Shown here: piece by piece, positions 4,745 to 45,520 of the stretch | How the letters are laid out: each line of letters starts with the position of its first letter | Position numbering within the stretch: position 1 is the first letter of the stretch | Assembly (NCBI RefSeq): GCF_003334405.1 | Contig: NZ_QOWM01000007.1 | Length of the DNA: 64,000 nt | Direction: 5' to 3' (one strand) | Origin: Escherichia coli | GTDB taxonomy: Bacteria > Pseudomonadota > Gammaproteobacteria > Enterobacterales > Enterobacteriaceae | Made by a program: the position numbers and the translations under genes | Notes under the pieces: generated by a model | The model's database searches: none | What the model was told of the DNA's origin: nothing | The model's input: only the letters and a program-made list of their open reading frames with translations

Positions 4745-5889
4745 AAATCACCAAAATTACCACGTATCGTTTACCTCCCCGCTGGATGTTCCTGAAAATT
4801 GAAACCGATGAAGGCGTGGTCGGTTGGGGCGAGCCCGTGATCGAAGGCCGCGCCCGTACGGTGGAAGCGGCAGTTCACGAGCTGGGTGACTATTTGATTG
4901 GTCAGGATCCATCGCGCATCAATGACTTATGGCAAGTGATGTATCGCGCCGGATTCTATCGCGGCGGTCCGATCCTGATGAGCGCCATCGCCGGGATTGA
5001 CCAGGCGTTATGGGATATCAAAGGTAAAGTGCTGAATGCGCCGGTCTGGCAACTGATGGGCGGCCTGGTTCGCGACAAAATTAAAGCCTACAGTTGGGTT
5101 GGCGGCGATCGTCCGGCGGATGTTATCGACGGCATTAAAACGCTACGCGAAATCGGCTTCGATACCTTCAAACTGAACGGTTGTGAAGAACTGGGGCTAA
5201 TTGATAACTCCCGCGCGGTAGATGCGGCGGTTAACACCGTGGCACAAATTCGTGAAGCTTTTGGCAATCAGATTGAGTTTGGTCTTGATTTCCACGGTCG
5301 CGTCAGCGCGCCGATGGCGAAAGTGCTGATTAAAGAACTGGAGCCGTATCGCCCGCTGTTTATTGAGGAGCCGGTGCTGGCGGAACAAGCCGAATACTAC
5401 CCGAAACTGGCGGCACAAACGCATATTCCACTGGCGGCGGGTGAACGCATGTTCTCACGCTTCGATTTTAAACGCGTGCTGGAGGCAGGTGGTATTTCGA
5501 TTCTGCAACCGGATCTCTCCCACGCGGGCGGTATTACCGAATGCTACAAAATCGCCGGAATGGCAGAAGCCTATGACGTGACCCTTGCGCCGCACTGTCC
5601 GCTCGGACCGATTGCACTGGCGGCTTGCCTGCATATCGACTTTGTTTCCTATAACGCCGTACTTCAGGAACAAAGTATGGGAATTCATTACAACAAAGGC
5701 GCGGAGTTACTCGACTTTGTGAAAAACAAAGAAGACTTCAGCATGGTCGGCGGCTTCTTTAAACCGTTAACGAAACCGGGCTTAGGCGTGGAAATCGACG
5801 AAGCTAAAGTGATTGAGTTCAGTAAAAATGCCCCGGACTGGCGTAATCCGCTCTGGCGTCATGAAGATAACAGCGTAGCAGAGTGGTAA
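4741..5889 (+). CDS. dgoD: D-galactonate dehydratase (enolase superfamily)
   Basis: 382-aa ORF; ATGA overlap with dgoA; recognised DgoD sequence. Confidence 0.95.
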
Positions 5890-6008
5890 TTCCTGCCACG
5901 TAAGCCCCTCATCGGGCACTAAAACAGCAATACAAAAATATAACCCTCTGTAAATTACAGGGCATGGTGAGCGGCTTCGCTATGCCCAAAATCTGGAGAA
6001 AGCTCGCT

Positions 6009-7301
6009 ATGGATATTCCCGTTAATGCAGCAAAGCCGGGGCGTCGGCGTTATCTGACGCTGGTGATGATCTTTATTACGGTAGTCATTTGTTATGTCGA
6101 CCGCGCCAACCTGGCCGTGGCTTCCGCCCATATTCAGGAAGAGTTCGGCATTACCAAAGCGGAAATGGGCTATGTATTTTCGGCCTTCGCCTGGCTTTAT
6201 ACGCTATGTCAGATCCCCGGCGGTTGGTTTTTAGATCGCGTAGGTTCTCGCGTGACTTATTTTATTGCGATATTTGGCTGGTCAGTGGCGACTTTATTCC
6301 AGGGCTTTGCCACGGGCTTAATGTCATTAATTGGTCTGCGCGCGATAACCGGTATTTTCGAAGCGCCTGCTTTCCCGACCAATAACCGGATGGTGACCAG
6401 CTGGTTCCCGGAACATGAACGCGCTTCTGCCGTTGGTTTTTATACGTCTGGTCAGTTTGTCGGTCTGGCGTTTCTGACGCCGCTGCTGATCTGGATTCAG
6501 GAGATGTTGAGCTGGCACTGGGTGTTCATTGTCACTGGTGGTATCGGCATTATCTGGTCGCTGATTTGGTTTAAGGTTTATCAGCCGCCGCGCCTGACCA
6601 AAGGTATCAGCAAAGCTGAACTGGATTACATTCGTGATGGCGGCGGTCTGGTGGATGGTGATGCGCCGGTGAAGAAAGAGGCGCGTCAGCCGTTAACAGC
6701 CAAAGACTGGAAACTGGTGTTCCATCGTAAACTGATCGGCGTTTATCTTGGGCAATTTGCGGTGGCTTCTACACTGTGGTTTTTCTTAACCTGGTTCCCG
6801 AACTATTTAACCCAGGAAAAAGGAATCACGGCGCTGAAAGCAGGCTTTATGACCACGGTGCCATTCCTCGCGGCGTTTGTCGGCGTCCTGCTCTCTGGCT
6901 GGGTAGCGGATCTGCTGGTACGTAAGGGCTTTTCACTGGGCTTTGCGCGTAAAACGCCGATTATCTGCGGCTTGCTGATCTCCACCTGCATTATGGGCGC
7001 TAACTACACTAACGATCCGATGATGATTATGTGCCTGATGGCGCTGGCATTCTTCGGTAACGGTTTTGCTTCGATTACCTGGTCGCTGGTTTCTTCTCTG
7101 GCACCGATGCGCCTGATTGGTTTAACCGGCGGCGTGTTTAACTTCGCCGGTGGTCTGGGCGGCATCACCGTTCCGCTGGTGGTGGGGTACCTGGCGCAGG
7201 GTTACGGTTTCGCACCTGCACTGGTTTATATCTCCGCCGTCGCGTTGATTGGCGCGCTCTCTTATATCCTGCTGGTGGGCGATGTGAAGCGCGTTGGCTA
7301 A
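6009..7301 (+). CDS. dgoT: D-galactonate:H+ symporter (MFS)
   Basis: ORF 5964..7301 trimmed to [15 protein letters not shown]... (430 aa); multi-helix hydrophobic MFS-type protein. Confidence 0.9.
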
Positions 7302-10214: not shown

Positions 10215-10316
10215 TACATCGTAGCCGATGAGGACGCGCCTGATGGGTGTTCTGGCTACCTGACCTGTCCATTGTGGAAGGTCTTACATTCTCGCTGATT
10301 TCAGGAGCTATTGATT

Positions 10317-10730
10317 ATGCGTAACTTTGATTTATCCCCGCTTTACCGTTCTGCTATTGGATTTGACCGTTTGTTTAACCACTTAGAAAACAACCAGAGC
10401 CAGAGTAATGGCGGCTACCCTCCGTATAACGTTGAACTGGTAGACGAAAACCATTACCGCATTGCTATCGCTGTGGCTGGTTTTGCTGAGAGCGAACTGG
10501 AAATTACCGCCCAGGATAATCTGCTGGTGGTGAAAGGTGCTCACGCCGACGAACAAAAAGAGCGCACCTATCTGTACCAGGGCATCGCTGAACGCAACTT
10601 TGAACGCAAATTCCAGTTAGCTGAGAACATTCATGTTCGTGGTGCTAACCTGGTAAATGGTTTGCTGTATATCGATCTCGAACGCGTGATTCCGGAAGCG
10701 AAAAAACCGCGCCGTATCGAAATCAACTAA
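10317..10730 (+). CDS. ibpA: Small heat-shock protein IbpA (alpha-crystallin family)
   Basis: 137-aa [20 protein letters not shown]... recognised as IbpA; Shine-Dalgarno aggag at 10303-10307; the ORF-track start at 10311 is an upstream TTG. Confidence 0.95.
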
Positions 10731-24440: not shown

Positions 24441-24546
24441 ATATTTGGACAAAACGCAAACTGTGATCGATACTCAACTATGCACTAAATACGTCAAAAT
24501 TCGTGCCGAAATTGCGCGTTCTGCGCGGAACACGTATACTTTCAGT

Positions 24547-24622
24547 GTTGACATAATACAGTGTGCTTTGCGGTTACCAGCCGCAGGCGACTGACGAAAC
24601 CTCGCTCCGGCGGGGTTTTTTG
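24547..24622 (+). ncRNA. istR: Candidate IstR-1 antitoxin sRNA (boundaries approximate)
   Basis: Candidate -10 tatact at 24535-24540; a 21-nt segment (24547-24567) repeats the tisAB leader segment 24319-24339; ends at a hairpin plus gggtttttt at 24601-24622. Confidence 0.5.
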
Positions 24623-32008: not shown

Positions 32009-33775
32009 TTATTCCGTGACTTCCAGCGTAGTGAAGGCAAACTTCTCGCCATCAAATAGCCCCTGACTGGTTAGTTTTAGCGCGGGGATCACTGGCAGAG
32101 AAAGAAACGCCATCTGAATAAACGGCTCATCGGGTAACGGACCGCATTCACGGGCGGCGGCTTTCAAGGCGTCAATTTGTTCCGCCAGCGACTGCGCCGT
32201 GTCGGTGCTCATCAGCCCGGCAATGGGTAACGGCAGATGACTTTGTACCTGGCCGTTACGTACCACGCACAGCCCGCCGCCATCCTGAATCACCTGATTG
32301 ACCGCCAGCGCCATCTCTTCGGCACTGCGACCGATCACCACAATATTATGGCTGTCATGGCTGACCGTCGCAGCCAGCGCACCTTCATTCAGTCCAAAGC
32401 CGCCAAGCAAACCACAAGCCGGAGCCAGCCGTTGCCCGTAACGCTCAAGTACGGCAATAAAGCTCACATCATCGCGATCAAAACCATTTTCGCTGTAGAC
32501 GCTGGAGTGGGAGTGCGTAATCAATTCGTTATGGATGACGTCAATGACCCGATAGCGTTTTCCGGGCGTAAATTGCAGGGCAAAGTCGCTGGCGGAAACT
32601 GGCTGGCGGGCAATGGTGTTGCCATATGGCGGAGCGGATTGTGCCAGTCTCGCCGACTCTTCCGCCTGTAAGGTTTGCGCATCAATCGGCTCGCCTTTCA
32701 CCAGTACCTGCTGCACCGTGACCTTACGCGCATCGCTCAACAGGACGATATCGGCCTGCTTGCCGGGTGCCAGTAAGCCGAGGTGATTCAGACCAAAGTG
32801 GCGCGCCGTCGACCAGCTGGCGACGCGATATGCCACATGCAGCGGCACATTGTGTTGTTCGATCAGGCGGCGAATTAAGGCATCGATGTGTCCTTCATGG
32901 GCGATCTCCCACGGGTTACGGTCATCGGTACAGAGCATGCATTGCGGGCTGTTAAATTCGTTGATCAACGGTGCCAGCGCGTTGAGATTGCGGGCAGCGG
33001 ACCCTTCGCGGATCATCAACGACATGCCGAGTTGTAATTTCCGGCGTCCTTCTTCCAGCTGATAACTTTCGTGGCAGTTTTCAATACCCGCAGTAATATA
33101 GGCGTTAAGTTCTTTACCACCCAAACCCGGGCAGTGACCGTCCAGCGTCAGGTGGCGAAATGCATCCAGTTTATCGAGCAGCGCATTCTGCCCGCTAATT
33201 ACGCCAGGGTAGTCCATCATTTCTGCAAGGCCGGTAACCTGCGGATGGTCCCGCCAGGCGAGCATCTGTTCAAGGGTAAAACTGGCACCGTTAACATCGC
33301 AGCCTTCCAGGGCGGGTACGCAAGAGCTGACCTGTAAGTACTGGTTTTGCCTTGCCTGTTCGGCACAGCGGGCAAACCAGGCGAATCCGGCTTCGCCCAT
33401 CACGTTGACGATTTCATGAGGGTCGCAAATAACGGTCGTCAGGCCGCGCGGCAGGGTAGCGGTTTCAAAAGTGACCGGCGTCATCATGCTGGATTCAATA
33501 TGCAGGTGAGCATCAATAAACCCTGGCACCGCCGTTGCGCCGCGAGCATCAATCCGCTGCAAAGCCGGAGCATCAGTGTATTCTGCGCCAACACCGGCAA
33601 TGTAACGTCCTTTAATCACAATTGGGCCGGAAATTTCTCCGCCATTGATCAGGTCGAGAATAGAGACATTATCAATAATATAATCGGCAACAGCGTCGCC
33701 ACGGGAAACGGCTAACAATTCCTGGTATTCAGCCCGGCTAATGTGATGAAATTTATGGTTAATAGAATTATTCAT
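32009..33775 (-). CDS. ade: Adenine deaminase
   Basis: 588-aa ORF with amidohydrolase metal-binding motifs ([13 protein letters not shown]). Confidence 0.95.
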
Positions 33776-33949
33776 ATTTTTCTCATTTTGATTTTATCAA
33801 TTTGATTATTATTTATCATAAAGAAACGTCGCGAGATTATTAAAGAATATCCATTAATGTGCAATTGAAATGTGATAATTATCACTGAACCGTTGTTGTC
33901 ATTTGTTTTACAAAAGCAAGGGATTAAATCTCCTCCAATGGACAAAAAA

Positions 33950-35284
33950 ATGAATAATGACAATACCGATTACGTGAGTAATGAATCAGGGACGCTTTCG
34001 CGATTATTTAAACTACCTCAGCATGGGACCACCGTCCGCACAGAATTGATTGCGGGGATGACCACTTTTTTAACCATGGTGTACATCGTTTTTGTGAACC
34101 CGCAAATCCTCGGCGCGGCACAAATGGACCCGAAAGTGGTGTTTGTTACCACCTGTTTGATTGCCGGTATCGGCAGTATTGCGATGGGGATATTTGCTAA
34201 CTTACCCGTGGCGCTGGCTCCGGCAATGGGGCTGAACGCCTTCTTTGCCTTCGTGGTCGTGGGGGCGATGGGCATCTCCTGGCAGACCGGGATGGGCGCA
34301 ATATTCTGGGGCGCAGTTGGACTATTTTTGCTCACGCTGTTTCGTATCCGGTACTGGATGATCTCCAACATTCCCTTAAGTTTACGTATTGGTATCACCA
34401 GCGGAATTGGATTATTTATCGCCTTAATGGGATTAAAAAATACTGGCGTTATTGTCGCCAATAAAGACACGCTGGTGATGATTGGCGATTTAAGTTCTCA
34501 CGGCGTGTTGTTAGGTATTTTAGGGTTTTTTATTATAACCGTGTTGTCATCACGTCATTTTCATGCCGCGGTGCTGGTTTCTATTGTGGTGACGTCTTGC
34601 TGTGGATTATTTTTCGGTGATGTTCATTTTAGCGGCGTCTATTCCATTCCGCCTGATATTAGCGGCGTCATTGGTGAAGTAGATTTGAGCGGCGCGTTAA
34701 CACTTGAACTCGCCGGTATCATTTTCTCCTTTATGCTGATCAACCTATTTGATTCATCAGGAACATTAATTGGTGTAACTGATAAAGCGGGCTTAATAGA
34801 TGGTAACGGTAAATTCCCCAATATGAATAAGGCGCTGTATGTTGATAGCGTCAGTTCGGTGGCGGGTGCGTTTATCGGCACCTCGTCTGTTACTGCCTAT
34901 ATTGAAAGTACTTCTGGTGTGGCAGTCGGTGGCCGCACGGGGCTGACTGCGGTTGTGGTTGGCGTTATGTTCCTGTTGGTTATGTTCTTCTCACCGCTGG
35001 TGGCGATAGTTCCTCCTTACGCAACCGCCGGAGCGTTAATCTTTGTTGGCGTGCTGATGACTTCGAGCCTGGCGCGCGTTAACTGGGATGATTTTACCGA
35101 ATCGGTGCCTGCGTTTATTACCACGGTGATGATGCCCTTTACTTTCTCGATCACCGAAGGGATTGCACTCGGCTTTATGTCGTACTGCATCATGAAAGTA
35201 TGCACCGGGCGCTGGCGCGATCTGAACCTGTGTGTGGTGGTGGTCGCAGCTCTGTTTGCACTGAAGATTATTCTGGTGGATTAG
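33950..35284 (+). CDS. adeQ: Adenine permease (NCS2/AzgA family)
   Basis: ORF 33872..35284 trimmed to MNNDNTDYVSNESGTLSRLF... (444 aa); an alternative ATG lies at 33938. Confidence 0.85.
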   Translation: MNNDNTDYVSNESGTLSRLFKLPQHGTTVRTELIAGMTTFLTMVYIVFVNPQILGAAQMDPKVVFVTTCLIAGIGSIAMGIFANLPVALAPAMGLNAFFAFVVVGAMGISWQTGMGAIFWGAVGLFLLTLFRIRYWMISNIPLSLRIGITSGIGLFIALMGLKNTGVIVANKDTLVMIGDLSSHGVLLGILGFFIITVLSSRHFHAAVLVSIVVTSCCGLFFGDVHFSGVYSIPPDISGVIGEVDLSGALTLELAGIIFSFMLINLFDSSGTLIGVTDKAGLIDGNGKFPNMNKALYVDSVSSVAGAFIGTSSVTAYIESTSGVAVGGRTGLTAVVVGVMFLLVMFFSPLVAIVPPYATAGALIFVGVLMTSSLARVNWDDFTESVPAFITTVMMPFTFSITEGIALGFMSYCIMKVCTGRWRDLNLCVVVVAALFALKIILVD

Positions 35285-38567: not shown

Positions 38568-39491
38568 TCACTTATGCCGCGCCGGACGATTTATTTTTCT
38601 GGCGCGGCGACGGGAATCCATTGAAATCAAAATCACCGATGACAGAATCAGCAGCGTTCCCAGCCAGTCCGGTAATGTGAACGTGATCCCCAGCAACAGC
38701 AAAGAGAGTAGCGCGCTACTTAATGGTTCTGCACAGCTCAAAATGCTGGCTTTTGGACCGCCAATTAATTGTGCTCCTTTCAGGTACAGACTAAATGTCA
38801 GGGACGTACCAATGACCACCAAATAAAAAAACGCCAGAATCAAACTGCCGTTAACGACAAAGTTTGTTCCTTGTCTGGCATAAAAAGGCAACAGAATCAG
38901 ACCGCCAATCAGCATACTCCAGCCGACGACTGGTAACGTGCCATAGCGGGCAATTAGCGTTGAGGGATAGGTGGTATAGAATGCAGCAGCAAATGCCGAG
39001 GCAATGCCCCAGAACAACGCGGCAGGAGAGATCGATAATGACGTCGGATTACCGTGTGTCACCAATAAAAAAGTCCCGACCAGCGATGTCAAAATAGCGC
39101 AGAAAACCAGAATGCCCGGGCGCGATTTACGCACCAGTGAGAACCAGGCGACGATAATCGTCGGTGAGAGGAATTGCAGCACCGTTGCCGTGGCTGCGTT
39201 CGATTTTTCGATGGTTAGCAAAAAAGTGAGCTGTACAGTTAGCGCGCCAACCACGGAAAAAATCAGCAGGCTAATGGCATCTTTATGATTGTTAATAATA
39301 GAAAAGATTTTATCGCCATGAACAAATGACAGCGTCAGTAGAATCAAACCGGCGAATATCAAACGCGTCATAGTCAAAAACTGCGACGACATCTGGCTTT
39401 GCTCCATGATGTATTGCGCGCAGACCCCTGAACTTCCCCACAACACGGCGGCAATCAGAACGTTCAGCATCCCCTTTCTGGTGGAACCCAT
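38568..39491 (-). CDS. yicL: EamA/DMT-family inner-membrane transporter YicL
   Basis: 307-aa polytopic membrane ORF recognised as YicL. Confidence 0.9.
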
Positions 39492-39601
39492 TTTTCCCTC
39501 TGCATACTGTTTTGTCGTTTATGTATGCAGGCATGATAGCAAAAATGGCGAGGATGGCTCTGTTTGCGCCACGCCGATTTTTCTTAGCCCAGACTGGTGA
39601 G

Positions 39602-40786
39602 CTAAATATCTTTAATAAACAGCAGGCAAATCATCGCAATACCCAACATCCCTATCGCCAGCCAGAACAACGCATGGTAGCTCCAGATTTCAACCATAAT
39701 TCCGTCAACAGAGCCGGCGATAATCCAGCCGACGCGTGAAGTATTTGCATATAACGTTGTCGCAGAGCCTATTTTTTCAGGCATCAAGTCCTGAAAATAA
39801 AGCATGCCGATACCACAGAGAATACCAAGGAAGATGGCATTAAGAATTTGCAATTCCAGCTCAACCGCCGGAGTCGTCGCCATGAGTACGCTGGCGTAAA
39901 AACACATTCCACTCACGATAGCAATGAGCATTAATAGTCGCTTGCCAATACGTTTCATGTAATAGCCTGCGATTAACATCATCGGAATTTCCAGACCGGC
40001 AGCGATACCAATCATTTCTCCAGCCAGTTTATCGGTTAGATGCAGTTCATCAATAATAAATAGCGGCATATTTATCATGTAGAGATTATTCGCCGCCCAC
40101 ATCATTGAACAGACCACAAAAAGTAGCCGCGTATCCCGCTTCCTGTGGGTGGAGGGTAAAATTTCTACGGGTTGGGTAACGACAGGAATATTTCTTTGTA
40201 TTGATGGCAAAAACAACCAGACTATCAGTCCGCAAACAACAAATGCGATGGCAGCGGTGAGATACATCACTTTAAAACTAAATCCCATTGCCAGTTCATA
40301 AGCGAGCGGTGGCCCGATAACCCAGGCAAGCGAGATCTGAGCACGTAAAAATGTACTGAACATGACCGTCTCACGGCCTGTTCTGTCGGCGTGTTCACGG
40401 GCGAGGGCGAACATTTGCGGGTTTGCGGTGGAAGCAAAACTACTCAGAAGTACGCCCGTTGAGAGGAGAATGAAGTAGTTGCGATTCCACGCAAAAAGCG
40501 TGCAGGCCAGCACTCCAAATAAGCAACATAGCAGAATCAGTAATTTACGGTCGCCTTGTTTATCGGAGTGCCTTGCCAGAAATTGACTGACCAGAATTCC
40601 CATAATAGCGCTACCGGTGAAGAAAAAACCTACCATTATAGGACGGGCTTTCAGTTCATCTGCGAGGAATATACTTAGGGTAGGAGTCTGAAGAGCGCCC
40701 GCAATACCCGTCAGAAAGGCGACAAGTAAAAATGCCGCGGCAGTGAGATCAAGTATTTTTGATGGAGTGGTAGCCGTTTTTTGCAT
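39602..40786 (-). CDS. setC: Sugar efflux transporter SetC (MFS)
   Basis: 394-aa ORF recognised as SetC. Confidence 0.9.
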   Translation of the reverse strand: MQKTATTPSKILDLTAAAFLLVAFLTGIAGALQTPTLSIFLADELKARPIMVGFFFTGSAIMGILVSQFLARHSDKQGDRKLLILLCCLFGVLACTLFAWNRNYFILLSTGVLLSSFASTANPQMFALAREHADRTGRETVMFSTFLRAQISLAWVIGPPLAYELAMGFSFKVMYLTAAIAFVVCGLIVWLFLPSIQRNIPVVTQPVEILPSTHRKRDTRLLFVVCSMMWAANNLYMINMPLFIIDELHLTDKLAGEMIGIAAGLEIPMMLIAGYYMKRIGKRLLMLIAIVSGMCFYASVLMATTPAVELELQILNAIFLGILCGIGMLYFQDLMPEKIGSATTLYANTSRVGWIIAGSVDGIMVEIWSYHALFWLAIGMLGIAMICLLFIKDI

Positions 40787-41422
40787 TCTTCTGAATCACC
40801 GGGCGAAAAAATATAACTGAGTTACAAATAAGTACCAGTCGAATGAGTATTGTATTAAGAATTTTTGAGTATCGCTGATACAACCAGAAAGCAATGCTAG
40901 CGCAATATTATAGGGCCAGCAATTGAGATTATTAGTAAAAGCATGTTAAGAATTAATTACCGAATTTATATATTAATTATAGTAAGGCAATGAGCTATTT
41001 TTGATAGTAAAAATAAAACAAGTTGATTTGATATATTAAATGAACAAATTAATCTTGATGGCAGTCTGATTATTGGTGAAGTTTATAGTCAGTTTTTTTC
41101 GCCAGCGGTTAAAGAAATAGAATAGTCGTATAAAAAAGGGTGTTCTGGGGCGAGTAAAACAACATCTTCACCTTAATGGCGATACAGTTGGCTGAGAGTC
41201 AGCAGGGGGGCAAATCACCTGCAAATAAACACGGCGCATACTGGCGTGAATATCGCGGATGCGTTCGAGGACAGAAGAACCGACAGGCGGATTCTTCAGC
41301 CGCTCATCGTCCATCACAAAACCTTAGACCAGGTATTCCTGAAGCCGATTGAATATTGAGCAGTAGAAAATATCTGGATTGACAGTATTACAAGGGGTTG
41401 GAGAACGTCAGGAGAGGCATTT

Positions 41423-41517
41423 TGGCGGAAGATCACAGGAGTCGAACCTGCCCGGGACCGCTGGCGGCCCCAACTGGATTTGAAGTCCAGCCGCCTCACC
41501 GGAGACGACGATCTTCC
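41423..41517 (-). tRNA. selC: tRNA-Sec (selenocysteine tRNA, UCA anticodon)
   Basis: Minus strand reads GGAAGATCGTCGTCTCCGGTGAGGCGGCTGGACTTCAAATCCAGTTGGGGCCGCCAGCGGTCCCGGGCAGGTTCGACTCCTGTGATCTTCCGCCA, the E. coli selC sequence, 95 nt including the encoded CCA. Confidence 0.95.
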
Positions 41518-41809
41518 GCGCCTCGATTGCTACATGGAGGCGGGGCGCATTATAGCTACTTCCTTGAGTTTCTACATCCCCCAGATCAGTTTTTTCCGCC
41601 TAATACACGCAGCGTATTATCACGAAAGCATTATAGTTCATATAAAATCCATATTTTACAATGATATATGAGCGGAATTAACGCTACCACGATCACATAA
41701 AACAAGAATCATAAATTAATAACCAGATATCGGAATATTCGCTCTCACAGGGATGGTTTACAAAATGCGTTATCGGTCTCAGCACCCCTATAGCATCAAG
41801 GAAAAGTAG

Positions 41810-43192
41810 ATGAAGAGTGAAGTGTTGTCCGTTAAAGAGAAAATTGGTTATGGCATGGGAGACGCCGCCAGCCACATTATTTTCGATAACGTAATGTTAT
41901 ATATGATGTTCTTTTATACCGATATTTTTGGCATTCCTGCCGGATTTGTCGGAACCATGTTTTTGGTCGCTCGTGCACTGGATGCGATTTCCGATCCTTG
42001 CATGGGGTTGTTGGCCGATCGAACGCGCTCTCGCTGGGGTAAATTTCGTCCGTGGGTACTGTTTGGCGCACTGCCATTTGGGATCGTCTGTGTACTGGCC
42101 TATAGCACGCCAGATCTCAGTATGAACGGAAAAATGATTTATGCAGCAATTACTTACACCCTACTTACCTTACTTTATACCGTCGTCAATATCCCTTACT
42201 GCGCATTGGGTGGTGTAATCACCAATGACCCGACTCAGCGTATCTCGCTGCAATCCTGGCGTTTTGTGCTGGCGACCGCGGGAGGCATGCTTTCTACGGT
42301 TCTGATGATGCCACTGGTTAATTTAATTGGTGGTGATAATAAACCACTCGGTTTCCAGGGTGGTATCGCGGTCCTTTCCGTGGTGGCATTCATGATGCTG
42401 GCATTCTGTTTCTTCACCACTAAAGAACGCGTTGAAGCACCACCTACAACGACGTCTATGCGGGAAGATTTACGTGATATCTGGCAAAACGACCAGTGGC
42501 GGATTGTCGGTTTACTAACCATTTTCAATATCCTGGCGGTGTGCGTACGCGGTGGAGCGATGATGTATTACGTCACATGGATTTTGGGTACGCCGGAAGT
42601 GTTTGTCGCTTTTCTCACCACTTATTGCGTGGGTAACCTGATTGGTTCCGCTCTGGCAAAACCGCTGACCGACTGGAAATGTAAAGTCACTATTTTCTGG
42701 TGGACGAACGCCCTGCTGGCAGTGATTAGCCTCGCGATGTTCTTTGTTCCCATGCAGGCCAGCATCACTATGTTTGTCTTCATCTTCGTGATTGGTGTGT
42801 TGCATCAACTGGTGACACCTATCCAGTGGGTAATGATGTCCGATACCGTCGACTACGGCGAGTGGTGCAATGGTAAACGCCTGACCGGGATCAGTTTTGC
42901 TGGCACGCTGTTTGTGCTCAAACTGGGGTTGGCCTTCGGCGGCGCTCTTATCGGCTGGATGCTGGCTTATGGCGGATATGATGCGGCAGAAAAAGCGCAG
43001 AACAGCGCCACGATTAGCATCATTATTGCGCTATTCACGATTGTTCCGGCGATCTGTTATTTGCTGAGCGCGATTATCGCTAAACGCTACTACTCACTCA
43101 CGACGCACAATCTGAAAACCGTTATGGAACAGCTGGCCCAGGGCAAACGCCGTTGCCAGCAACAATTCACCTCTCAAGAAGTGCAGAACTAA
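41810..43192 (+). CDS. yicJ: GPH-family glycoside transporter (putative xyloside permease)
   Basis: 460-aa ORF recognised as YicJ. Confidence 0.9.
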   Translation: MKSEVLSVKEKIGYGMGDAASHIIFDNVMLYMMFFYTDIFGIPAGFVGTMFLVARALDAISDPCMGLLADRTRSRWGKFRPWVLFGALPFGIVCVLAYSTPDLSMNGKMIYAAITYTLLTLLYTVVNIPYCALGGVITNDPTQRISLQSWRFVLATAGGMLSTVLMMPLVNLIGGDNKPLGFQGGIAVLSVVAFMMLAFCFFTTKERVEAPPTTTSMREDLRDIWQNDQWRIVGLLTIFNILAVCVRGGAMMYYVTWILGTPEVFVAFLTTYCVGNLIGSALAKPLTDWKCKVTIFWWTNALLAVISLAMFFVPMQASITMFVFIFVIGVLHQLVTPIQWVMMSDTVDYGEWCNGKRLTGISFAGTLFVLKLGLAFGGALIGWMLAYGGYDAAEKAQNSATISIIIALFTIVPAICYLLSAIIAKRYYSLTTHNLKTVMEQLAQGKRRCQQQFTSQEVQN

Positions 43193-43201
43193 GGAACGGC
43201 A

Positions 43202-45520
43202 ATGAAAATTAGCGATGGAAACTGGTTGATTCAACCTGGCCTCAATTTGATTCACCCGCTTCAGGTGTTCGAGGTTGAACAGCAGGGTAATGAAATGGTG
43301 GTCTATGCTGCCCCCCGTGATGTGCGTGAACGTACCTGGCAGCTTGATACGCCTTTATTTACGCTGCGCTTTTTCTCCCCACAGGAAGGTATTGTCGGTG
43401 TACGGATTGAGCATTTTCAGGGGGCGCTGAATAACGGTCCTCATTACCCACTCAATATTTTGCAGGACGTGAAGGTCACAATCGAAAACACAGAGCGTTA
43501 TGCTGAGTTTAAAAGTGGCAACTTAAGTGCGCGTGTCAGCAAAGGTGAGTTCTGGTCACTGGATTTTCTGCGCAACGGCGAACGTATTACCGGTAGTCAG
43601 GTGAAAAATAATGGCTACGTGCAGGACACGAATAATCAACGAAATTATATGTTTGAGCGGCTGGATCTTGGCGTTGGCGAAACAGTTTATGGTCTGGGAG
43701 AGCGCTTCACTGCCCTGGTGCGCAATGGTCAAACGGTAGAGACCTGGAACCGGGACGGCGGCACAAGTACTGAACAGGCGTATAAAAATATCCCGTTCTA
43801 CATGACTAACCGTGGTTATGGGGTACTGGTCAATCATCCCCAATGCGTCTCTTTTGAAGTGGGATCGGAGAAAGTCTCCAAAGTGCAGTTCAGCGTTGAG
43901 AGTGAATATCTCGAATACTTTGTTATCGACGGTCCGACGCCGAAAGCGGTACTTGATCGTTATACCCGCTTTACTGGTCGTCCGGCGCTGCCGCCCGCGT
44001 GGTCCTTCGGTCTGTGGCTAACCACTTCATTTACCACCAACTACGACGAGGCGACAGTAAACAGCTTTATCGATGGTATGGCGGAACGCAATCTGCCACT
44101 GCATGTTTTCCACTTTGACTGTTTCTGGATGAAAGCCTTCCAGTGGTGCGATTTTGAGTGGGACCCGCTGACTTTCCCGGACCCGGAAGGGATGATCCGC
44201 CGCCTGAAAGCGAAAGGGCTGAAAATCTGCGTCTGGATTAACCCCTATATCGGGCAAAAATCCCCCGTCTTTAAAGAGTTACAAGAGAAAGGCTATTTAC
44301 TCAAACGCCCGGACGGTTCGCTGTGGCAGTGGGATAAATGGCAGCCAGGTCTGGCGATTTATGACTTTACCAATCCGGATGCCTGCACATGGTACGCCGA
44401 CAAACTGAAAGGTCTGGTCGCGATGGGCGTTGATTGCTTTAAGACCGACTTTGGCGAACGTATCCCAACCGATGTTCAGTGGTTTGACGGTTCCGATCCG
44501 CAGAAAATGCATAACCATTATGCGTACATCTACAACGAACTGGTGTGGAACGTGCTCAAGGACACCGTTGGTGAGGAAGAAGCCGTCTTGTTTGCCCGCT
44601 CGGCCTCCGTTGGTGCGCAGAAATTCCCGGTACACTGGGGTGGTGACTGTTACGCTAACTACGAATCAATGGCGGAAAGCCTGCGCGGTGGTTTGTCTAT
44701 TGGCCTTTCAGGTTTTGGCTTCTGGAGCCACGATATCGGCGGCTTTGAAAATACCGCTCCGGCACACGTTTACAAACGCTGGTGCGCGTTTGGTTTGCTC
44801 TCCAGCCATAGCCGTTTACATGGCAGCAAATCTTATCGTGTGCCGTGGGCCTACGATGATGAGTCCTGTGATGTGGTGCGCTTCTTCACGCAACTGAAAT
44901 GCCGCATGATGCCGTATCTGTATCGTGAAGCTGCGCGTGCAAACACGCGGGGTACGCCGATGATGCGGGCCATGATGATGGAGTTCCCGGACGATCCGGC
45001 TTGTGATTACCTTGACCGTCAATACATGTTAGGCGACAACGTGATGGTTGCGCCGGTGTTCACTGAAGCGGGCGATGTGCAGTTCTACCTGCCGGAAGGT
45101 CGCTGGACACACCTGTGGCACAACGATGAACTCGACGGTAGTCGCTGGCATAAACAGCAGCACAGCTTCCTGAGTCTGCCCGTTTATGTGCGTGATAACA
45201 CTCTACTGGCGCTGGGCAACAACGATCAACGTCCCGATTACGCGTGGCACGAAGGCACGGCATTCCACCTCTTTAATCAGCAAGACGGGCATGAAGCCGT
45301 CTGTGAAGTGCCCGCTGCTGACGGTTCGGTGATCTTTACTCTAAAAGCAACACGTACTGGTAACACGATTACTGTGATTGGTGCGGGCGAGGCGAGGAAC
45401 TGGACACTGTGCTTGCGCAATGTTGTGAAAGTAAATGGTCTGCAAGGCGGTTCGCAGGCTGAAAGTGAGCAGGGGCTGGTGGTGAAGCCTCAAGGGAATG
45501 CGCTGACAATTACGTTGTAA
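43202..45520 (+). CDS. yicI: Alpha-xylosidase (glycoside hydrolase family 31)
   Basis: 772-aa ORF starting 10 bp after yicJ; recognised YicI sequence. Confidence 0.95.

Follow-up and report, generated by a model that had tools for sequence, protein, structure and literature searches.

The window analysed here is a stretch of 64,000 nucleotides of Escherichia coli DNA. Its sole tRNA gene, found with ARAGORN, is selC, which encodes tRNA-Sec. The neighbouring genes are arranged in the order yicL, setC, selC, yicJ and yicI, and between yicL and yicJ the window matches K-12 MG1655 at 99.9% identity over 3,243 bp. The 3´ end of selC (41423) points to lower coordinates and thus to the side of setC, from which it is separated by a spacer of 636 bp (40787-41422). 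The initial annotation was right that the gap before setC is short but gave its length as 637 bp. The features of the locus are as follows:

38568-39491, minus strand: yicL
39602-40786, minus strand: setC, an MFS sugar-efflux paralogue of 394 aa (NCBIfam TIGR00899, 646.7 bits)
40800-41130, minus strand: AT-rich block upstream of setC (composition; K-12 promoter island 3834632_331)
41131-41182, no strand assigned: segment joining the rhuM relic to the AT-rich block (5.9% mean pairwise difference)
41183-41344, minus strand: rhuM pseudogene fragment, 162 bp (tblastn; RefSeq annotation; K-12 yicT)
41345-41407, minus strand: probable leader relic from an older rhuM unit variant, 63 bp (homology to E69, L005)
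41408-41422, minus strand: 15-bp trailer directly 3´ of selC (homology to L002, E. albertii and Hafnia resumes at 41408)
41423-41517, minus strand: selC, gene for tRNA-Sec(UCA) (ARAGORN; Rfam RF01852, 83.8 bits)
41810-43192, plus strand: yicJ

The TIGR00899 score marks the product of setC as a sugar efflux transporter of the SetA/B/C type. The spacer is the K-12 spacer, with no differences between the two in alignment A2.

The last 21-24 nt of selC constitute the att core for islands that integrate at this gene, and in the present strain the attachment site is empty. A tblastn search with the selC-linked integrase of O157:H7 gave no match to the spacer at E ≤ 10 and none in the whole window at E ≤ 1e-3. 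Allowing up to 3 mismatches, the window contains a single copy of the 26-nt selC 3´ end, and the best matches in the spacer to the last 16, 20, 24 or 30 nt of selC were no better than those in shuffled spacers. Internal repeats in the spacer were restricted to short AT-rich chance families, none of them related to selC. Rfam at E ≤ 1 reported tRNA-Sec alone and no other structured RNA in the spacer, and the search for an intrinsic terminator after selC returned one weak candidate with a 5-bp stem (41168-41182), which is at chance level. Open reading frames of at least 40 aa in the spacer are confined to frames of 44-61 aa, and the longest of these (61 aa, 41314-41499) overlaps the tRNA.

The occupied selC loci of O157:H7, O104:H4 and Combat2C1 share their tRNA and att core with the window, but carry a tyrosine recombinase beside selC and tens of kb of cargo, both of which are missing here. 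In O104:H4, the distal junction of a CP4-like island repeats 24 nt of the selC 3´ end and is followed by an intact spacer that is 100% identical to that of the window; the selC island of EAEC 042 has been described likewise, with a 21-bp repeat (PMC7058095). In Combat2C1, a P4-like satellite prophage sits between selC and the rhuM gene that is also present in APEC O2-211. The islands of O104:H4 and Combat2C1 both end in the 21-24-nt repeat of the selC 3´ end, after which comes the same 15-bp trailer. In O157:H7 86-24, the order is selC, integrase, CP4-like remnant, IS elements, LEE, a piece of setC and yicL; this locus has lost the spacer and retains no more of setC than a 174-bp pseudogene of its 3´ end. 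The trailer itself, which reads AAATGCCTCTCCTGA on the minus strand, is common to setC-type and rhuM-type E. coli loci, and in a comparison of eight divergent spacers it is the piece that varies most among island-carrying strains (mean pairwise difference 16%).

The states of the locus in the population were counted in 5,426 complete E. coli genomes. setC is present at a coverage of at least 80% in 3,722 of these and the whole spacer in 3,619, while selC is contiguous with the spacer, as in the window, in 2,494, making this junction the commonest E. coli state. The difference between the last two counts implies that about 1,100 genomes carry an insertion between selC and the spacer. Full-length rhuM adjoins selC in 843 genomes (~16%). 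The proposal of the initial annotation that the selC hotspot is unoccupied, with no integrase and no direct repeat of the tRNA 3´ end, is borne out by the searches and by a flank shared with nearly half of the genomes. Neither a second selC terminus nor integrase remnants, the two signs of an occupied or decayed island that it had named, are present in the spacer. This test is, however, too narrow to detect a remnant of rhuM, and the statement that the spacer has no coding ORF, although correct in that only short frames occur, overlooked the pseudogene fragment at 41183-41344. The accessory content between selC and the backbone gene yicL consists of this fragment and a variably present setC block.

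The part of the spacer proximal to selC (41183-41422) is a decayed rhuM unit joined to the tRNA gene. A RefSeq feature, “rhuM: RhuM family protein”, surfaced under the spacer in a megablast search against the complete genomes, and on the identical O104:H4 sequence RefSeq has 'rhuM' with an internal stop and a missing N-terminus and C-terminus. With an intact RhuM as query (WP_001280586.1, 345 aa; Pfam PF13310, Virulence_RhuM, at E = 6e-118), tblastn aligned residues 121-185 with 41344-41183 at 63% identity (E = 2e-20), and blastn of the DNA gave 94.7% identity between 41271-41345 (75 bp) and the intact gene. The fragment represents codons 121-185 of a gene of 345 codons, codons 1-120 and 186-345 being absent. 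Within it, an in-frame TAA replaces K127, and deletions of eight residues (VPDYFDEM) and three residues, i.e. 24 bp and 9 bp, have occurred. The fragment is not expected to give a functional product. In K-12, yicT (b4653; NCBI PGAP 'rhuM: RhuM family protein, partial') overlaps the fragment at the same position and on the same strand; it maps to 41183-41314 of the window and lies 109-240 nt 3´ of selC in MG1655. The PGAP fragment (162 bp) reaches 30 bp nearer to selC than K-12 yicT (132 bp), and there is otherwise no substantive difference between them.

The 63 bp between the fragment and the trailer (41345-41407) are most plausibly interpreted as the leader of an earlier rhuM unit, based on one divergent genome, E69. 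In this genome (L005), the 15-bp trailer comes after a partial selC core (1878-1900) and precedes a homologue of the 63-bp piece, with a local alignment at z = 18 against shuffles. About 30 bp past this homologue, a second, truncated copy of rhuM starts, represented by its ribosome-binding site and ~14 codons of its 5´ end. We also considered that the 63-bp piece might derive from a diverged P4-like attL arm, and rejected this: MAFFT had hinted at a resemblance to the O157:H7 arm, but local alignment scores are at shuffle level (z = 1.2 for O157 and 0.8 for copy 1 of E69).

The 24-bp deletion and the truncations are common to spacers that are up to ~6% divergent, whereas the stop codon is lineage-specific and is not found in the most divergent spacers, CUVET19 and GIMC1405. 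The decay thus appears to be both old and ongoing. The mean pairwise difference in the rhuM relic is 3.0% (eight spacers). A rhuM unit would once have been located directly 3´ of selC, with 41183-41407 (225 bp) as its in-place remains. One deletion of ~390 bp would have taken the end of the leader together with codons 1-120, and a separate break would have removed everything past codon 185. The 24-bp and 9-bp deletions would have come afterwards, as would the stop codon in this lineage. We infer both this order of deletions and the decay in place by deletions ending inside rhuM and its leader.

Intact rhuM genes at the equivalent position are found in other strains and species. APEC O2-211 has yicJ, selC, 52 bp, rhuM, a gene for a 165-aa hypothetical protein and yicL in succession, without setC; this rhuM is 1,038 bp long, is on the strand of selC and matches PF13310. 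Neither RhuM nor the 165-aa protein, which takes the place of setC in B2-type loci, is represented by an NCBIfam model. In Salmonella, rhuM of SPI-3 (STM3755, Infantis SARB27) is 71% identical at the DNA level over the fragment and has the same orientation, 3´ of selC, the gene order being yicI-yicJ ... rhuM-rmbA-misL-fidL-marT. The Salmonella gene is intact (1,023 bp) and ~3 kb from selC, whereas the window has only codons 121-185 followed by setC. A scan for RhuM in one genome per bacterial species gave 80 loci, 24 of which have a tRNA-Sec gene upstream on the same strand, often 150-900 bp away. The genera with selC-linked RhuM include Enterobacter, Erwinia, Pantoea, Raoultella, Hafnia, Huaxiibacter and Pseudescherichia as well as Proteus, Providencia, Morganella and Photorhabdus; in Serratia and Yersinia, the distances are larger.

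In E69, an intact unit of 1.67 kb comprising rhuM only, without an integrase, is flanked on both sides by selC-core repeats. The left arm of the unit matches the arm between selC and the integrase in O157:H7 at 82% identity over 162 bp, and the right arm and core match O157 L085 44004-44106 at 81%. In Pseudescherichia vulneris, a core repeat follows rhuM after 112 bp, with the layout rhuM, right arm, core. Most selC-rhuM loci have no second att core within 6 kb.

The distal part of the spacer belongs with setC. The rhuM-type loci L002, L003 and L005 have neither setC nor the AT-rich block, and their homology to the window extends from the yicL side as far as 39520-39564 and from the selC side as far as 41216, which is within rhuM. 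It follows that setC and its 396-bp upstream region (40787-41182) constitute one block that is either present or absent. A tblastn search against the 80 RhuM loci of other species found no setC there. Either a rhuM locus may have received the block by insertion, or rhuM and setC may have been paired ancestrally, with erosion differing by lineage. The junction segment (41131-41182) is variable in 9 of 52 columns, which makes it the internal segment with the highest variability in the eight spacers, and searches for relatives returned none, including no match in rhuM-type loci.

The initial annotation had noted the AT-richness of the spacer at 40800-41100, and 100-bp intervals over 40950-41100 do indeed have a GC content of 19-23%. 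The block at 40800-41130 has 29.6% GC against 51.8% for the window, a value as low as that of just 0.05% of 331-bp intervals, and the minimum for any 331-bp stretch in the 64 kb (27.8%) is reached by the one starting at 40806. The composition is also asymmetric. GC skew, which the initial annotation had suggested calculating across the spacer, reveals an excess of G over C on the plus strand between 40750 and 41150 (+0.18 to +0.48), such that RNA in the sense of setC, transcribed from the minus strand, is C-rich and G-poor. The predicted RNA composition fits a zone of Rho-dependent termination, rut sites being likewise C-rich and G-poor. A distant blastn search for the block on plasmids and phages found only mislabelled E. 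coli chromosomes and two contaminated “Campylobacter phage” records; a 47-bp match in Fusobacterium was dismissed as chance.

In K-12, the same DNA has been studied from several angles. The 'promoter island' 3834632_331, selC(+)/setC(+), is bound by H-NS in all ChIP studies (Panyukov and Ozoline 2013, PMC3661553) and was flagged as foreign-associated by Nakamura et al. (PMC3661553). By coordinates it is the same object as 40800-41130; it was placed on the window via our own conversion from U00096.2, with an offset of 1,977 bp between MG1655 versions. Peaks of RpoS and RpoH holoenzyme have been reported in the K-12 selC>setC spacer by genomic SELEX (PMC5493296). In a Rho N340S mutant of K-12, setC mRNA is up 31.9 +/- 1.9-fold (PMC9160355), and setC was classed as having a “very strong” upstream Rho-dependent termination zone, its location given as “upstream of” the probe without exact coordinates (PMC9160355). 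H-NS binding and Rho dependence are K-12 data rather than data from this strain, the spacer sequence being identical (A2). Our own scan for the sigma-70 consensus in 40600-41900 found one promoter-like site against 3.5 expected from shuffles, the published call having been made with PlatProm; the single site is on the strand opposite setC. This simple scanner did not reproduce the published density of promoter-like signals.

Silencing of setC of the xenogeneic type is the most likely role of 40800-41130, since H-NS binds this DNA in K-12 and a defect in Rho strongly de-represses setC there. In the mechanism that we infer, H-NS on the AT-rich DNA would occlude promoter-like sites, and Rho, acting on the C-rich leader RNA, would halt transcripts that begin there or read through from selC. 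Together, the two would hold setC nearly off, and the silencing zone would at the same time shield setC from selC read-through. Among the eight divergent spacers, variability is lowest in the AT-rich block (1.8% mean pairwise difference); variable columns number 15/344 here and 26/277 in the rest of the spacer (Fisher p = 0.014, from only eight sequences). This lower diversity is mild support for constraint on the control region of setC, and none for constraint on the relic. The suggestion of the initial annotation that the spacer is native H-NS-type promoter DNA for setC is thus supported by the K-12 literature for the distal 396 bp, but fails for the proximal 240 bp.

Taken together, the spacer is in all likelihood a composite of three layers, namely the trailer, a rhuM fossil and the upstream region of setC, beside an empty att site. 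That it could instead be pristine intergenic DNA, serving as the promoter region of setC and without any island history, is very hard to credit; the lack of an integrase, an att repeat or a long ORF and the prevalence of the contiguous junction would be in line with this, but are outweighed by a highly significant match of 162 bp to the middle of RhuM with the lesions of a pseudogene, by RefSeq and K-12 annotations that both say pseudogene, and by the intact rhuM genes that other E. coli and Salmonella SPI-3 carry at this position. For 41183-41407, a pristine origin is already refuted by the homology to rhuM. Hardly more credible is that the rhuM-like stretch has been kept for a function of its own, as a 49-aa ORF (41168-41317) or as a regulatory RNA for setC. 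A GTG-start frame of this length covers most of the fragment, which persists in >3,600 genomes, but such persistence would be expected even of neutral DNA enclosed by selC and setC; moreover, the fragment varies more than the AT-rich block, one lineage has a frameshifting 1-bp deletion and others have different lesions, and tRNA-Sec is the only Rfam match. The initial annotation had offered the scar of an ancient excised element as its second reading, and 41183-41422 (240 bp) is indeed a scar, albeit one of rhuM with internal deletions rather than of excision. Excision by an integrase recombines attL with attR, restoring a clean site with no internal gene fragment. In the window, both breakpoints lie within rhuM or its leader and not at att cores, no attR-like repeat or integrase remnant has survived, and the same truncations recur across divergent lineages, as fits one old deletion history. 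Excision of a large, integrase-bearing pathogenicity island from selC is therefore improbable as the origin of the spacer, even though selC-core repeats flank the rhuM units of E69 and Pseudescherichia vulneris and the E69 arms are ~81-82% identical to the arms of the selC prophage remnant of O157:H7. From these bracketed units and shared arms, rhuM probably first arrived on an integrative element. The two alternatives of the initial annotation, promoter DNA and scar, thus each hold for a different part of the composite spacer.

How rhuM came to reside at selC is less clear-cut. One tentative possibility is that the rhuM unit is a miniature, integrase-less cassette flanked by att sites and carrying one candidate anti-phage gene (PDC-S05), which uses the integrases of selC-specific P4-like islands and accumulates in tandem at selC, with yicT of the K-12 type as its oldest and most heavily eroded copy. 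Old vertical linkage is a live alternative to this, because most selC-rhuM loci lack a second core within reach. rhuM would then be a long-standing neighbour of selC in Enterobacterales rather than cargo, and the fragment would reflect ordinary gene loss. The synteny yicJ-selC-rhuM in Huaxiibacter, Pseudescherichia, Enterobacter and Hafnia speaks for such inheritance, as do the identities to the E. coli proteins among the Enterobacteriaceae in this group, which are close for RhuM (77-83%) and YicJ (86-88%). We nevertheless consider it rather unlikely. Hafnia RhuM is 85% identical compared with 74% for YicJ, E. albertii RhuM is just 87% identical, and copies with 66-79% identity occur in Vibrio, Shewanella, Zhongshania and others with no selC nearby. 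Serratia sp. DD3 has 8 loci, although repeated spacing over four contigs suggests a duplicated assembly. Finally, att-bracketed units are found in two genomes, and the family belongs to the defence candidates of PADLOC, which are typically mobile.

All elements of the locus are already known, i.e. yicT/rhuM, the selC/setC promoter island and the selC integration hotspot. With its pieces in annotation or literature, the locus is ordinary and matters little for discovery. It does illustrate that an “empty” tRNA hotspot can still hold fossils of past occupants, and that tests for an integrase or an att repeat alone overlook fossils of the rhuM type. A possible lead is the link of rhuM, a candidate anti-phage gene, to selC across Enterobacterales, sometimes in att-flanked form without an integrase. 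Intact E. coli RhuM matches the PDC-S05 single-gene candidate anti-phage models of PADLOC (E = 3e-173), in comparison with which the fragment in the window is a dead 54-codon piece with no expected defence function. One PDC-S05 representative reduces the plating of T7 and T5 by ~1,000-fold (bioRxiv 10.1101/2024.09.26.614923).

RhuM has long carried the label of a 'virulence' protein, and one Salmonella record names it a 'Fic family toxin'. The intact RhuM WP_001280586.1, encoded at 5397-6434 of an E. coli locus (L002), scores E = 3e-173 against PDC-S05, a candidate anti-phage system in PADLOC. One PDC-S05 member is reported to confer ~1,000-fold protection against T7 and T5 (preprint, bioRxiv 10.1101/2024.09.26.614923).

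The gene is linked to selC across many genera of Enterobacterales. In a scan of one genome per bacterial species, which gave 80 RhuM loci (L005-L084), tRNA-Sec lies just upstream of rhuM and on the same strand in 24, often at a distance of 150-900 bp, and yicJ is retained on the opposite side of selC in several rhuM loci. As the tRNA is single-copy, adjacency in 24/80 loci is far above chance. Examples of RhuM loci beside tRNA-Sec are:

L030, 5702-7035
L060, 5736-7035
L077, 5737-6984

Two loci of the scan contain units in which an intact rhuM is the only gene and the selC 3' core, the att core used by selC-integrating islands, stands on both sides as a direct repeat:

L005, 204-1913, rhuM-only unit of E. 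coli E69
L027, 5732-7157, rhuM-only unit of Pseudescherichia vulneris

The arms of the E69 unit share 81-82% identity with the ends of the O157:H7 selC prophage remnant, and its distal selC core is followed by a second, truncated rhuM start. Such a core-bracketed unit looks like either a mini-element devoid of integrase or the product of tandem accretion.

At the selC/LEE locus of O157:H7 strain 86-24 (L085), the prophage remnant ends in a partial and diverged selC core (44004-44028). At the distal LEE junction setC is reduced to a 174-bp 3' fragment (5486-5659), annotated as an MFS transporter pseudogene, and the selC-setC spacer is entirely absent. Among the eight divergent spacers aligned across strains, the 15 bp adjoining the selC core (window 41408-41422) are by far the most variable part, with a mean pairwise difference of 16%; the differences cluster in strains carrying islands at selC, as if crossovers had brought in element-derived sequence. 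IS1 has inserted into the spacer in strain SW071611 (NZ_CM129855.1 46578-48064) and into setC in strain 64EVA (NZ_CP138399.1 338147-340108), and disruption is therefore tolerated by the region.

The E. coli spacer also occurs, at 100% identity over 636 bp, in two records of ~174 kb named 'Campylobacter phage A18a/A11a', where it probably represents contaminating E. coli DNA or misassembly:

MG065686.1, 68924-69559, spacer copy
MG065691.1, 104564-105199, spacer copy

Three PLSDB records with the chromosomal selC-setC locus (CP061233.1, NZ_OL790696.1 and NZ_CP141089.1; 1.0-4.9 Mb) are evidently chromosomes or chromosome fragments misfiled as plasmids.

Elsewhere in the window, only 33656-33989 has a GC content almost as low as that of the setC upstream block (331-bp GC <= 31.6%), and it may be a further H-NS-type region. 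It is flanked by divergent ORFs at 32009-33775 (-, 588 aa) and 33872-35284 (+, 470 aa), which are probably the adenine deaminase and permease pair of the K-12 map. The other Rfam matches of the window at the gathering threshold, besides tRNA-Sec, are all K-12-type features, as expected:

77-119, ES036 sRNA
10251-10323, ROSE_2 thermoregulator
24492-24621, istR
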